From positions 1-64,000 of the IMG/VR virus record IMGVR_UViG_3300020172_003394: a DNA stretch of 64,000 nt, one strand, 5' to 3'. Position numbers and translations under genes: made by a program. The DNA is from a virus. Position 1 is the first letter of the stretch. Each line of letters starts with the position of its first letter. The notes beneath the pieces are model-generated. The model made no database searches, had not been told where the DNA came from, and saw only the letters and a list, made by a program, of their open reading frames with translations. This document shows positions 22,869 through 36,809 of the stretch, one piece after another.

Positions 22869-23402
22869 ATGGTTATGGCGTTAGATTCGACTAAATGTGT
22901 TGTTCTGAATGCCACGTATGAGCCCATAACAGTCGTGACTTCGAAGCGAGCACTATTGTTATTTTTAGAAGGAAAAGCTATCATAGTCGAGGAACATCCA
23001 GAGCTTGTGGTACGGTCACCAAGACAGACATTCCCTGTACCGTTGATGATTGCGTTAGTACGCTATATCAAGGGCCGCCGTGTATTTAAGACACCAGCTT
23101 TACTCACACAGAAAAACCTATTTGTTCGTGATGCATATACTTGCCAATATTGTAATCGGCATAAAAGTGCGTTCCGTCCTAGTGAATTTTTAACTCGTGA
23201 CCACGTACATCCTGTTGCAAAGGGTGGTCAAGACAAGTGGGAAAATGTAGTCACAAGTTGTAGTACGTGTAATAATAAAAAAGCAGATAAGTTATTAGAG
23301 ATGACTACAATGAAACTAGCAAAATTACCTGTCACCCCCACTATTTTTGAGTTGTGGACAAAGCAACAGGCACGAACTAACAGAGTAATAATGGTTGCAT
23401 AA
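22869..23402 (+). CDS. HNH endonuclease (McrA-like)
   Basis: LNATYEP, RDAYTCQYC, DHVHP..KGG..WENVVTSCSTCNNKK. Confidence 0.9.
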   Translation: MVMALDSTKCVVLNATYEPITVVTSKRALLLFLEGKAIIVEEHPELVVRSPRQTFPVPLMIALVRYIKGRRVFKTPALLTQKNLFVRDAYTCQYCNRHKSAFRPSEFLTRDHVHPVAKGGQDKWENVVTSCSTCNNKKADKLLEMTTMKLAKLPVTPTIFELWTKQQARTNRVIMVA

Positions 23403-24100: not shown

Positions 24101-24720
24101 TTGATTATGAAGAGAAGGCAAAAAAGAACTTAGAGAAGTTCAACGCATTTCTTGCTGAAGATCCTCGTGTTGAAAAGTTGAATGAGATGTATGAGGTGTT
24201 CGGTGAGCAGTTGCTTTCCGCACCCGCATCTGGTAAGATTCATTACCACAACGCATTTCCTGGTGGGTATCTTGACCACGTAGTACACGTTGCGGAAACC
24301 TCTATGAAGGTGGCAACCGTGTACAAGGCTATCGGTGGGCAGATTGACTTTACTAAGCAGGAGATGATTTTTACGGCTCTTCATCACGACTTGGGTAAGT
24401 TGGGTAATGAGGCTGGTGCCTACTACCTTGACCAAGACAGTGATTGGCATCGTAAACGTGGTGAGATGTACACGTATAACGACAATATTCAGTTTATGAC
24501 GGTCACGGATAGAGCACTGTATCTTTTACAAAAGTTTGATATCAAGATTACAGAGAAGGAGTGGCTAGCAATCAAGATGTCAGATGGTTTATATGACGAA
24601 GGAAACAAACCATACTACAAGCCGTATCAGAAGTATGCGATGAAAACGAATCTTCCGTATGTTATCCACTGGTCAGACCATATGGCTTGTACTGCGGAAC
24701 GTGACGAAGGGATGTTCTAG
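24097..24720 (+). CDS. HD-domain phosphohydrolase (YhaM-like)
   Basis: APAS...HNAFPGGYLDH, LHHDLGK, HWSD. Confidence 0.85.
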   Translation: MIDYEEKAKKNLEKFNAFLAEDPRVEKLNEMYEVFGEQLLSAPASGKIHYHNAFPGGYLDHVVHVAETSMKVATVYKAIGGQIDFTKQEMIFTALHHDLGKLGNEAGAYYLDQDSDWHRKRGEMYTYNDNIQFMTVTDRALYLLQKFDIKITEKEWLAIKMSDGLYDEGNKPYYKPYQKYAMKTNLPYVIHWSDHMACTAERDEGMF

Positions 24721-24728
24721 TAGTTGAT

Positions 24729-24810
24729 GCACTCGTGGCGTAATTGGAAGCCGCGCAGGTCTTAGGAACCTGTGCCGTAAGGCGTGTGGGTTCGACCCCC
24801 ACCGAGTGCA
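24729..24810 (+). tRNA. tRNA-Leu(UAG)
   Basis: cloverleaf, caggt-cttagga-acctg, long V arm. Confidence 0.93.
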
Positions 24811-24945
24811 TTTATGACGATACTCAAATGTAAAAACTGTGGAGAAACCCAAAATCTACATACCAACTACGCGTATCATTTACCCGATACGCCTGTAGAA
24901 AGTATTTTGTGTAATGAATGTGGGGAGATTACCGAAGTAACGCAT

Positions 24946-25115: not shown

Positions 25116-25190
25116 GGATGAGTGGCAGAGAGGTCCAATGCAAGAGTCTGCAAAACTCTAAAGCCGCCGGTTCGAATCCGGCCTCGTCCT
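25116..25190 (+). tRNA. tRNA-Cys(GCA)
   Basis: agagt-ctgcaaa-actct; U73. Confidence 0.92.
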
Positions 25191-25265: not shown

Positions 25266-26381
25266 ATGAAAAAACTTATGTTAGCAACGCTGTTATTTAG
25301 TGTTGTTGCATGTGATACTTCAACTGAACCTTCGCCAACACCCGTAGCAACACAGGTTGCTATTTCTCCGGCGGCAGGACAAGTTGAAGTGGGTCGCACG
25401 GCTACACTCACAGCAACAGTATCAGACCAACTGGGTCGCCCCCTTACTTCACCTGTTACTTGGAGTTCTTTGAACCCTACAGTAGCAACGGTTTCATCCG
25501 CAGGTGTCATCACGGGGGTTGCACGTGGACAAGCATCAATTCGTGCAACATCGGGAGATGTGCAAGCAACAGTAACGGTATTCGTTATTGACCCAACGGT
25601 GGCAACAGTCACCATCACAGGTGCACCCACATCTACGTTTTTTGTGGGACAAACCTTCCAAGCAACAGCAACAGCACGTGATGCTTCAAACAATGTTTTA
25701 ACATCATTTGTGACCACTTGGACATCAGGTACGCCTGCAGTAGCAACCGTTTCACCGTCAGGATTGGTTACTGCTGTTTCCGCAGGAACATCAATCATCA
25801 CTATTTCGGTGGGTGGAAGAACATCAACAATTACTGTGACAGTTTCATTAGTCCCTGTGAATACTGTAACATTGTCATTGCCGTCACCTGCACGAGTAGG
25901 TCGAGATGTAGCGATTACGTCTGTGCTACGTAATGCAACAGGAGCAACACTAACATCAGCACAACGAAATTTTGTGTGGGCAAGCACAGACACAACGGTT
26001 GCCACTGTTTCTTCTGCTGGTGTTGTTCGCGGTGTTTCTGTGGGCAATACCACCATCACTGCAATTGTTGAAGGAAAGGTGGGTATTCTTTCTGTATCAG
26101 TAACCGAAGTTGCAATTGACCGTATTGTTGTCACACCTGATAGTGCCAATGTTAAGGTTGGCGCAACTAGACAATACGTTGCTCAAGCGTTTGACGCAGA
26201 TAGTGTTTCACTTTCTACGGCAGCACTAAATAGTCGTGTGTTCACATGGACGAGTAGCAACACAGTCAAGTTTGTTGTATCTAATTCAGGACTTGTTACT
26301 GGTGTGGCAGTTGGCTCGGAAACCGTAACAGCAACAATTGGCAATAAATCCGGGACATCACAAGTTATTATCGTCCCATAA
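25266..26381 (+). CDS. lipoprotein with four bacterial Ig-like (Big_2) repeats
   Basis: lipobox VVAC; repeated TWSS..P.VATVS..G.VTGV..G. Confidence 0.9.
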   Translation: MKKLMLATLLFSVVACDTSTEPSPTPVATQVAISPAAGQVEVGRTATLTATVSDQLGRPLTSPVTWSSLNPTVATVSSAGVITGVARGQASIRATSGDVQATVTVFVIDPTVATVTITGAPTSTFFVGQTFQATATARDASNNVLTSFVTTWTSGTPAVATVSPSGLVTAVSAGTSIITISVGGRTSTITVTVSLVPVNTVTLSLPSPARVGRDVAITSVLRNATGATLTSAQRNFVWASTDTTVATVSSAGVVRGVSVGNTTITAIVEGKVGILSVSVTEVAIDRIVVTPDSANVKVGATRQYVAQAFDADSVSLSTAALNSRVFTWTSSNTVKFVVSNSGLVTGVAVGSETVTATIGNKSGTSQVIIVP

Positions 26382-26395
26382 CATTTATACAAGTA

Positions 26396-26526
26396 GTTTC
26401 AGGGGGTGTGTTGGTATGAGAAAGTCTATGAATATTGAAAAGATTTTAAAATACATCAATCAACACCCCCTGAAAGCTGTGTGTATTTGTGAGAAAACTC
26501 AGACGGAAACCTCGGAAAGAGATACC
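26396..26526 (+). ncRNA. candidate structured RNA / inverted-repeat element
   Basis: tttcagggggtgt/acaccccctgaaa 13-bp inverted repeat followed by small hairpins, abutting tRNA-Thr. Confidence 0.35.
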
Positions 26527-26607
26527 GCTACCTTCGCATAGTGGGATTGCACTTTCTTGGTAAGAAAGAGCCGTAAGGCAGAGTGAGTTCGATTCTCACA
26601 GGTAGCT
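26527..26607 (+). tRNA. tRNA-Thr(GGU) with long variable arm
   Basis: gctacct/aggtagc; ctttc-ttggtaa-gaaag; V arm gcc-gtaa-ggc. Confidence 0.85.
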
Positions 26608-26614
26608 TTACACT

Positions 26615-26686
26615 GCCCTGATAGTGTAATGGAGAGCACGATTGTCTTCGGAACAATTAGTAAAAGTTCGAATCTTTTTCGGGGCA
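26615..26686 (+). tRNA. tRNA-Arg(UCG)
   Basis: attgt-cttcgga-acaat. Confidence 0.88.
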
Positions 26687-26691
26687 CTTAT

Positions 26692-26765
26692 ACCCTCGTA
26701 GCTCAGCTGGATAGAGCATCAGACTTCTAATCTGAGGGTCAGAGGTTCGAATCCTCTCGGGGGTG
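26692..26765 (+). tRNA. tRNA-Arg(UCU)
   Basis: tcaga-cttctaa-tctga. Confidence 0.95.
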
Positions 26766-26769
26766 TTTT

Positions 26770-26856
26770 GGTGCGGTGGTAGAGAGGTTGAATGCACGGG
26801 ATTGCAAATCCTGCTAGTGGAAACACTACACGCCGGTTCGAATCCGGCCCGCACCT
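26770..26856 (+). tRNA. tRNA-Cys(GCA) with long variable arm
   Basis: ggtgcgg/ccgcacc-U; cggga-ttgcaaa-tcctg; V arm tagtg-gaaa-cacta. Confidence 0.87.
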
Positions 26857-28622: not shown

Positions 28623-28704
28623 GGGAGTGTTGCAGAGCGGCCAAATGCAGTTGACTGTAAATCAACCGTCTTAGACTTCGGTGGTTCGAATCCACCCGCT
28701 CCCA
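28623..28704 (+). tRNA. tRNA-Tyr(GUA)
   Basis: gttga-ctgtaaa-tcaac, V arm. Confidence 0.95.
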
Positions 28705-31801: not shown

Positions 31802-31886
31802 GGACAGTTGGCTGAGTGGTCTAAAGCAGGAGATTACTAATCTCTCGTACTGAAAGGTACCGTGGGTTCGAATCCTACACTGTCCG
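31802..31886 (+). tRNA. tRNA-Ser(ACU)
   Basis: ggacagt/actgtcc-G; ggaga-ttactaa-tctct; long V arm gtac-tgaaag-gtac. Confidence 0.9.
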
Positions 31887-36737: not shown

Positions 36738-36809
36738 GCCACAATAGCTCAGCGGTAGAGCACTCGATTTGTAATCGAGCGGTCGTCGGTTCAATCCCGA
36801 CTTGTGGCT
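36738..36809 (+). tRNA. tRNA-Thr(UGU)
   Basis: ctcga-tttgtaa-tcgag. Confidence 0.95.

Follow-up and report, generated by a model that had tools for sequence, protein, structure and literature searches.

Textbooks and current reviews of tRNA identity limit long variable arms in bacterial tRNAs to the Leu, Ser, Tyr and Sec isotypes. The nearest published cases outside this rule are the SelC* tRNA-Cys of anaerobic bacteria, the allo-tRNAs (PMC5389517) and the nev-tRNAs of nematodes (PMC3333845). Here, we analyse two further genes of this kind, a tRNA-Thr(GGU) and a tRNA-Cys(GCA) with long variable arms, which lie close together in a 64,000-nucleotide stretch of viral DNA (hereafter, the window), i.e., the first 64 kb of the 86-kb IMG/VR viral contig IMGVR_UViG_3300020172_003394. 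A reading made from the sequence alone had measured both genes against the same rule. As a textbook statement the rule stands, but it has exceptions: SelC* tRNA-Cys, the allo-tRNAs, the phage Cys and Thr families described below, and the sole tRNA-Cys of a Phycisphaeraceae bacterium.

SelC* tRNA-Cys carries a long arm together with U73 and a GCA anticodon, and it is cysteinylated and used in translation (Mukai et al., PMC5389517). Its cysteinylation, shown with an engineered D. tiedjei cysteinyl-tRNA synthetase (CysRS) modelled on the dedicated CysRS* (PMC5389517), indicates that a CysRS can accept a long-armed substrate. SelC* is nonetheless a mimic of tRNA-Sec: it branches 8/4, its anticodon and D stems are longer, a bulged A51a is frequent, its gene is linked to selB*/cysS*, and some versions have a UCA anticodon, whereas the window tRNA-Cys has a 7/5 branch and a Tyr/Ser-like D arm and is located in a phage tRNA array. 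Indeed, neither window gene shows the 8/4 or 9/3 branch or the long Sec-like D stem of SelC* and allo-tRNAs; both are 7/5 with a D stem of 3 bp. The allo-tRNAs and nev-tRNAs (PMC5389517, PMC3333845) resemble the window genes in that class II bodies bear anticodons other than those for Leu, Ser or Tyr. However, they keep Ser or Leu identity with G73 or A73, the allo-tRNAs branch 8/4 or 9/3, and both groups have been read as mischarging or regulatory molecules. In overall plan, the closest relative is the bacterial tRNA-Tyr (E. coli tyrT, or the tRNA-Tyr of this phage), which likewise has five arms, a 7/5 branch, a 3-bp D stem, a long D loop and a variable stem of approx. 3 bp followed by three unpaired bases. 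The window tRNAs differ from it by having U73 instead of A73, C or G instead of U at position 35, and GNRA loops on their arms. A full-text literature search returned no paper in which phages or Phycisphaeraceae are described as having Cys or Thr tRNAs with a long arm and a 7/5 branch. Long-arm Cys and Thr tRNAs constitute two large, mostly phage-borne and apparently undescribed tRNA families.

The two genes are genuine tRNA genes with base-paired, GNRA-capped variable arms (Table 1). ARAGORN calls both of them, and both match Rfam family RF00005 over its full length (model positions 1-71) with E values of approx. 1e-8 and scores well above the gathering score of 29. Unconstrained minimum free energy (MFE) folding recovers a five-arm cloverleaf for each (-28.0 kcal/mol for Thr and -33.9 kcal/mol for Cys). 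Each gene has an acceptor stem of 7 bp, a T stem of 5 bp, a D stem of 3 bp, U73 and intact conserved loops, and neither ARAGORN nor MFE folding reveals a disrupted stem in either. The D stem is formed by GCA/UGC in Thr, with a U13-U22 mismatch, and by GUA/UGC in Cys, with an 11-nt D loop. Both genes therefore have what defines class II, i.e., a variable region of more than 10 nt that holds a stem-loop, a 3-bp D stem with positions 13 and 22 unpaired, and an enlarged D loop. Canonical class I Cys and Thr tRNAs, such as the Thr(GGU) of the related contig L001, share the anticodons, the acceptor-end identity elements and the genomic slot with the window genes, but have a variable loop of 4-5 nt and a D stem of 4 bp in place of the hairpin of 14-18 nt and the 3-bp D stem. 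Every structural detail that the sequence-only reading had given for the two long arms was borne out. The DNA itself is not an assembly artefact, because a contig from an independent lake-water DNA run spans positions 25500-26726 with zero differences to the window. Contigs from RNA libraries cover parts of the tRNA island; among them, a 121-nt contig derived from a related strain spans positions 26744-26834 without gaps and covers the spacer between the second Arg gene and the Cys gene and then the Cys gene through its arm. The 10-nt arm of Thr(GGU), GCC-GUAA-GGC (26570-26579), is identical to the arm of the tRNA-Leu(UAG) gene located 1.8 kb upstream; this may be a coincidence of short GC stems with a GUAA loop or a possible trace of recombination.

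The homolog search that the sequence-only reading had proposed as a check has placed both genes in large phage families. For Cys, the scan of viral sequences required a canonical T loop 20-32 nt downstream of a GCA anticodon loop, and it returned at least 48 long-arm GCA tRNAs of 82-93 nt in diverse viral contigs. Together with genomic matches, the tRNA-Cys of phage phiCbK and the window gene, the family comprises at least 67 distinct long-arm Cys(GCA) sequences, among which U73 is found in 65 of the 67 matches listed. Cultured representatives exist: the phiCbK-group phages of Caulobacter have an annotated tRNA-Cys of 89 nt, delimited by ARAGORN as 85 nt plus an encoded CCA, with U73 and the same arm plan as the window Cys. 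The arm stems of family members with variable regions of 14 and 16 nt are 89-100% paired, as compared to 47-65% after shuffling, with several pair types per position. The spacer on the 3' side of the stem is 3 nt long, most commonly CAC as in the window Cys, and its last base is C in 57 of 63 sequences, which corresponds to a G15-C48 pair.

The long-arm tRNA-Cys is not confined to phages. The same pattern scan applied to prokaryotic genomes found single-copy chromosomal genes in many assemblies of Phycisphaerae and other Planctomycetota. In the complete 3.15-Mb Phycisphaeraceae chromosome OZ245998.1, which has 44 tRNAs, the sole tRNA-Cys is an 83-nt long-arm form with U73 (1014198-1014280), and the Cys and Tyr tRNAs of this chromosome have a common arm plan (1+3+4+3) and similar D arms. 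A strict version of the pattern matched 26 of 41 Phycisphaeraceae genomes and gave 0 matches when reversed as a control, whereas at the class level it matched only 9 of 81 Phycisphaerae genomes. Thus, the long-arm tRNA-Cys is a family-level trait rather than a class-wide one.

The Thr family was defined by a D-arm signature, UC-GCAUAG-N-GG...AUUGCA, combined with a variable hairpin of one nucleotide, approx. 3 bp, a tetraloop and three nucleotides. The D arm of the window gene (TC GCATAGTGGGATTGCA) is identical to that of family members (score 1.0). The signature occurs at no fewer than 119 viral loci, which yield at least 93 distinct tRNA-Thr sequences. Among the matches listed, long arms are found on 113 of the 119 copies; of the 94 sequences formed by the family and the window gene, 90 keep G1-C2, 62 have U and 30 have A as the discriminator, and the commonest arm architecture (1,3,4,3; 37 of 94) is also that of the window Thr. 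Covariation was examined position by position, with no alignment freedom, in 42 Thr tRNAs with a 14-nt variable region, including the window gene. The three stem pairs are Watson-Crick in 100%, 100% and 98% of the sequences, and GC, CG, AU and UA pairs are all found, whereas column shuffles reach 40-50% pairing and never exceed 69%. Most of the 42 have a G-N-A-A loop, and the consensus of the 3' spacer is C-A-C. As the stems covary in this way, the variable hairpin is a structural element under selection at the RNA level in both families. In bacterial genomes the Thr signature is rare: the 401 Bacteroidia genomes contained 2 occurrences, both inside dense, phage-type arrays of 10-18 tRNAs. The two genome bins concerned (G142:C39 and G512:C67) carry 10-18 tRNA genes within 3 kb, each with a long-arm Thr(UGU), and the contigs in question are probably of phage or prophage origin and ended up in the bin of their host. 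Other searches for relatives of the Thr gene were less informative. In a BLAST comparison with isolated phages, no match to the gene covered more than 48% of the query, and a long-arm Thr(UGU) query mostly matched true Ser tRNAs; BLAST is too insensitive for these tRNAs. A loose pattern (TGGTAA...GTTCGAWTC) retrieved mainly ordinary tRNAs; a single long-arm Thr(UGU) was among them, but a true long-arm Thr(GGU) was not. The loci so retrieved served solely as a nearly unbiased sample of tRNA loci in phages: among 21 Cys tRNAs there is one long form, among 45 Thr tRNAs two and among 30 Asn tRNAs five.

Within phage tRNAs, the arms fall into distinguishable types. Phage Ser arms have a stem mostly of 5-7 bp and a 3' spacer of 1 nt in 126 of 170 cases, and phage Leu arms have a 3' spacer of 1-2 nt. 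Phage Tyr arms combine a 3-bp stem with a 3-nt spacer, and the same 3-nt spacer follows stems of 3-4 bp in phage long Cys arms and of 3 bp in phage long Thr arms. Both window arms (5 bp plus 3 nt in Cys, 3 bp plus 3 nt in Thr) thus match the Tyr-type spacing and not the Ser-type one. The capping loop is another matter: GNRA loops are frequent in long-arm Cys, Thr and Asn tRNAs, but occur in 0 of 53 phage Tyr tRNAs. In the D arm, long Cys tRNAs are nearest to Ser (27 of 49) or Tyr (10 of 49), and long Thr tRNAs to long-arm Gly (45 of 100), Tyr (34 of 100) or Ser (12 of 100); both are rarely nearest to the class I form of their own isotype. Because their D arms resemble those of long-arm tRNAs, the long-arm Cys and Thr tRNAs are class II bodies rather than class I tRNAs with a stray insert. 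Long-arm versions of yet other isotypes, namely Asn(GUU), Ile(UAU), Met, Pro, Lys, Val, Gly, Arg and forms with suppressor-type anticodons, are present in phage tRNA arrays, mostly with a 3-nt 3' spacer. As a separate observation, in one sample of phage tRNA-Leu the apparent variable region was shorter than 10 nt in 30 of 63 ARAGORN calls.

A related contig, L001, shows how the locus has diverged. Its neighbouring 2OG oxygenase is 80% identical to that of the window, and the gene order Thr, Arg, Arg, Cys, 2OG oxygenase is common to both. The Cys slot of L001 holds a long-arm tRNA-Cys that is 74% identical to the window gene, with an arm that differs in sequence and is still paired owing to compensatory changes. 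The Thr slot, on the other hand, holds a class I Thr(GGU) of 73 nt that is only 56% identical to the window Thr, the lowest value of eleven syntenic tRNA pairs. Since the sister contig fills the same slot with a class I tRNA, class I and class II forms of Thr(GGU) appear to be interchangeable. The sequence-only reading had also pointed to normal short-arm Cys and Thr tRNAs elsewhere in the window. Both genes exist, but the Thr gene has a UGU anticodon, so it does not duplicate Thr(GGU), and the Cys gene has a variable loop of 6 nt and a D stem that is class II-like. The T arm of this short tRNA-Cys is identical to that of the long-arm Cys, and the gene has the appearance of a derivative that has lost its arm. 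Other viral contigs also contain short Cys tRNAs with this D arm, and the D stem of the T5 tRNA-Cys is likewise 3 bp; the short Cys gene and the Big_2 open reading frame (ORF) are both absent from L001.

Which amino acid the two tRNAs carry was judged by the identity rules summarised in PMC9976931 and PMC7609411. As the sequence-only reading had noted, the determinants of the cognate enzymes are retained: U73 and the GCA anticodon for CysRS, conserved across the family, and G1-C72 and C2-G71 for threonyl-tRNA synthetase (ThrRS), of which G1-C2 is conserved across the family; to these can be added G35 and U36 for Thr. The features tested for the synthetases for serine (SerRS), tyrosine (TyrRS) and leucine (LeuRS), chiefly base 73, are absent: there is no G73, the spacer is 3 nt rather than 1 nt, the Thr stem has only 3 bp, and for Tyr and Leu both genes have U73 rather than A73, with C (Cys) or G (Thr) and no U at position 35. 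Given that the CysRS and ThrRS determinants are kept and the tested SerRS, TyrRS and LeuRS ones are missing, cognate charging and ordinary decoding is the best reading and, in our view, a probable one. According to this reading, both genes would encode translation-competent tRNAs on a class II (five-arm) body whose plan in both families is approx. one unpaired base, a stem of 3-5 bp, a tetraloop (often GNRA), three unpaired bases and a D arm with a 3-bp stem; the host CysRS and ThrRS would charge them, and UGY and ACY codons in phage mRNAs would be decoded as Cys and Thr, respectively. One further element is lacking. The G15-G48 tertiary pair is a determinant for E. coli CysRS but is not conserved in all bacteria, and the last variable base of the window Cys is C (G15-C48); because the element is E. 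coli-specific, its absence is weak evidence.

Several points weigh against cognate decoding by both tRNAs. The GGU anticodon of the window Thr deviates from its family, which among the matches listed reads UGU (117 of 119) or AGU (2 of 119), so that the window gene is the only long-arm GGU version among them. Its 3' spacer, AGA instead of the consensus CAC, would turn the usual G15-C48 pair into G15-A48. One trait of the Cys arm is Ser-like, a 5-bp stem as long as in the Ser tRNAs of this phage, which makes weak serylation possible. The phage has two Cys(GCA) genes even though Cys accounts for only 0.63% of its codons, so plain codon supply does not explain them. The 121-nt RNA-library contig is the sole RNA signal for these genes and could represent a precursor or contaminating DNA. 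Finally, the synthetases of the host may differ in specificity from the published identity rules.

The sequence-only reading had suggested, as one of two alternatives, deliberate mistranslation by mischarged tRNAs. In that case the arm would recruit SerRS, TyrRS or LeuRS and thereby place Ser, Tyr or Leu at Cys or Thr codons. SerRS does recognise its substrates chiefly by the long arm rather than by the anticodon (PMC7609411), nematode class II tRNAs with non-Leu/Ser anticodons are charged with Leu (PMC3333845), and the 5-bp Cys stem would suit this idea. However, the missing G73, A73 and U35, together with the near-invariant U73 of the Cys family and cognate determinants conserved family-wide, argue against it. 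So does the Tyr-type geometry, as a spacer of 3 nt instead of the 1 nt usual in phage Ser tRNAs predicts a different orientation of the arm, and the 3-bp Thr stem is short. The cost would also be considerable. Within 68 ORFs, 3.1% of all codons, and 41% of those for Thr, are ACY, for which Thr(GGU) is the only tRNA of the phage, and systematic misreading of so many codons would therefore be very costly; in the sister phage the slot is filled by a class I Thr(GGU). Moreover, the long-arm design is compatible with normal Cys decoding, because a cell such as the owner of OZ245998.1 could not live with a mischarged sole tRNA-Cys. We thus consider mistranslation very improbable. The view that the genes are non-functional, i.e., pseudogenes, unexpressed genes or genes whose hairpin is removed from the mature RNA, is scarcely credible. 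The atypical AGA spacer and U13-U22 mismatch of the window Thr, and the redundancy of the long-arm Cys with the short Cys gene, could be read in its favour, but they are countered by the full-length Rfam matches with intact conserved loops and stems, by the covariation that indicates selection for the hairpin as an RNA structure, by the compensatory changes in the orthologous long-arm Cys of L001, and by the service of the same design as the sole cellular tRNA-Cys. We know of no bacterial mechanism for removing an insert from the variable region.

If cognate charging and ordinary decoding is accepted, the question of why the arm is kept can be answered in two ways that need not be mutually exclusive. 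It can tentatively be proposed that the arm is an inherited scaffold without special function, which came from a class II (Tyr- or Ser-like) ancestor that changed its anticodon and discriminator. For Cys, the route from tRNA-Tyr would be short, as GUA and GCA are one base apart and the change from A73 to U73 is another, and the hairpin would have been kept since the class II core, with its 3-bp D stem, needs it to fold. The Tyr-like arm geometry, the D arms nearest to those of Ser, Tyr or long Gly tRNAs, and the common arm plan of Cys and Tyr tRNAs in Phycisphaeraceae are all consistent with such an origin, and the short-loop Cys tRNAs with class II-like D arms, in the window and in T5, suggest that arms can be lost. 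Nonetheless, descent is read here from D arms of 18-20 nt, a length at which a rooted tree is impossible; the GNRA loops are foreign to phage Tyr tRNAs; and a design that has lasted in hundreds of divergent phages is more suggestive of a positive benefit than of inertia.

Such a benefit could lie in counter-defence, in line with the nuclease-resistant variants that the sequence-only reading had offered as its other alternative. The tRNAs would be cognately charged, and the hairpin would mainly alter the shape seen by host tRNA-cutting nucleases or toxins, or by a nuclease with which the phage itself attacks host tRNAs, so that the phage copies escape destruction. As this concerns only the reason for the arm, it is compatible with cognate decoding, but as the main role of the arm it seems doubtful. 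The comparison that invites it is with T5, whose tRNAs resist AriB, the PARIS nuclease that cleaves Lys(UUU), Thr(UGU) and Asn(GUU) in the anticodon stem, at positions 40/41 (PMC12409363). The authors of that study infer that AriB makes contacts away from the cut site (PMC12409363), and the hairpin would emerge beside the 3' strand of the anticodon stem, where AriB cuts. The isotypes of the phage isoacceptors of T5 (Lys, Thr, Asn) overlap with those of the long-arm forms, since the non-canonical long-arm isotypes recurring in phages include Thr(UGU), Asn(GUU) and Lys; the association of the Thr design with phages and the strong structural selection on the arm point in the same direction. However, the T5 tRNAs are class I, their resistance maps to anticodon-stem substitutions and the variable region is never mentioned (PMC12409363). 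The possibility that the resistant Thr, Asn and Lys tRNAs of T5 are themselves long-armed was rejected, as none of them is. The literature link to nuclease escape therefore does not carry over. In addition, free-living Phycisphaeraceae use a long-arm Cys as their normal tRNA, so no arms race is needed, and Pfam and PHROG scans of 30 ORFs revealed nothing in the contig that ties the tRNAs to a defence or anti-defence gene. We know of no nuclease that is sensitive to the variable arm. The more general form of the proposal, which we regard as unlikely, is that the Tyr-type hairpin sterically shields the adjacent 3' strand of the anticodon stem, so that phage Cys, Thr, Asn, Lys and other tRNAs would evade tRNA-cleaving nucleases of the host (or one with which a phage itself destroys host tRNAs) and yet remain substrates of the host synthetases. 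If it were true, steric-shield hairpins on class I isotypes would be a widespread, structurally encoded anti-defence strategy.

The genomic setting can be described briefly. The contig has an estimated completeness of approx. 48% and a G+C content of approx. 39%. With a baseplate wedge protein, a DsbA-type regulator, Hsp20 and a 2OG-Fe(II) oxygenase as T4-like markers in the window, it comes from a T4-like myovirus; by identity in one baseplate protein (37-39%), Microcystis phage Mel-JY01 and Flavobacterium phages come closest among isolates. The phage is present in freshwater and lake metagenomes, in DNA runs of several studies. Its 30 tRNA genes, called by ARAGORN and Rfam, form an island, in which the Thr, Arg, Arg and Cys genes are probably transcribed as one polycistronic precursor. 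Among 30 ORFs scanned against Pfam and PHROG, none matched an aminoacyl-tRNA synthetase or a tRNA-modifying or tRNA-repair enzyme, and the sole nuclease in these scans is an HNH endonuclease. Between positions 24500 and 29000, the count of promoter and terminator sites was no higher than in shuffled sequence.

Two other genes of the island deserve mention. An extra tRNA with a His anticodon loop has an aberrant T loop, GGCAGCA in place of TTCGAAT, and a normal-looking tRNA-His occupies the matching place in L001 (9375-9449). There is also a tRNA-Ser with A34 in its ACU anticodon, and the ACU gene is kept in the sister contig (L001:15029-15113). Ser(GCU) is not among the tRNAs called in the 86-kb contig, and AGT accounts for 28% of the Ser codons of the phage vs. 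4% for AGC.

Table 1. Positions in the window of the long-arm tRNA genes, their variable arms and other features discussed in the text.
Feature	Position	Strand	Remarks
tRNA-Thr(GGU), class II-shaped, 81 nt	26527-26607	+	ARAGORN; Rfam RF00005, 51.0 bits; MFE cloverleaf; anticodon at 26559-26561
Variable arm of tRNA-Thr(GGU), 14 nt	26569-26582	+	A, GCC, GUAA, GGC, AGA (1 nt + 3 bp + tetraloop + 3 nt)
tRNA-Cys(GCA), class II-shaped, 87 nt	26770-26856	+	ARAGORN; Rfam RF00005, 52.2 bits; MFE cloverleaf; anticodon at 26804-26806
Variable arm of long-arm tRNA-Cys(GCA), 18 nt	26814-26831	+	C, UAGUG, GAAA, CACUA, CAC (1 nt + 5 bp + tetraloop + 3 nt)
tRNA-Arg(UCG) and tRNA-Arg(UCU), ordinary class I	26615-26765	+	Between the long-arm Thr and Cys genes; spacers of 3-7 nt
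Second tRNA-Cys(GCA), short	25116-25190	+	6-nt variable loop; U73; class II-like D arm (3-bp stem, 11-nt loop)
tRNA-Thr(UGU), class I	36738-36809	+	Other Thr isoacceptor of the phage
tRNA-Tyr	28623-28704		Class II
tRNA-Leu(UAG)	24728-24811		
tRNA with His GUG anticodon loop	24947-25020	+	Rfam, 35 bits; missed by ARAGORN
tRNA-Ser(ACU)	31802-31886	+	
tRNA island	24.7-36.8 kb		
Transfer-messenger RNA (tmRNA)	20204-20556/20558	+	Rfam, 141.6 bits; just upstream of the tRNA island; tag peptide GNYNSPALALAA
HNH endonuclease	22869-23402		
Big_2 ORF	25266-26381		

The phage families, phiCbK and one bacterial family contradict the restriction of bacterial long arms to four isotypes, and, judging from the determinants conserved in their sequences, CysRS and ThrRS would tolerate a fifth arm in nature. 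These tRNAs also illustrate concretely how a tRNA body can be given over to a new amino acid, and they matter for annotation pipelines and for designing orthogonal tRNAs. Tractable systems in which the function of the arm may be studied, including a possible role in protection from defence nucleases, are phiCbK with Caulobacter and, provided that they have the long-arm tRNA-Cys, cultured Phycisphaeraceae.

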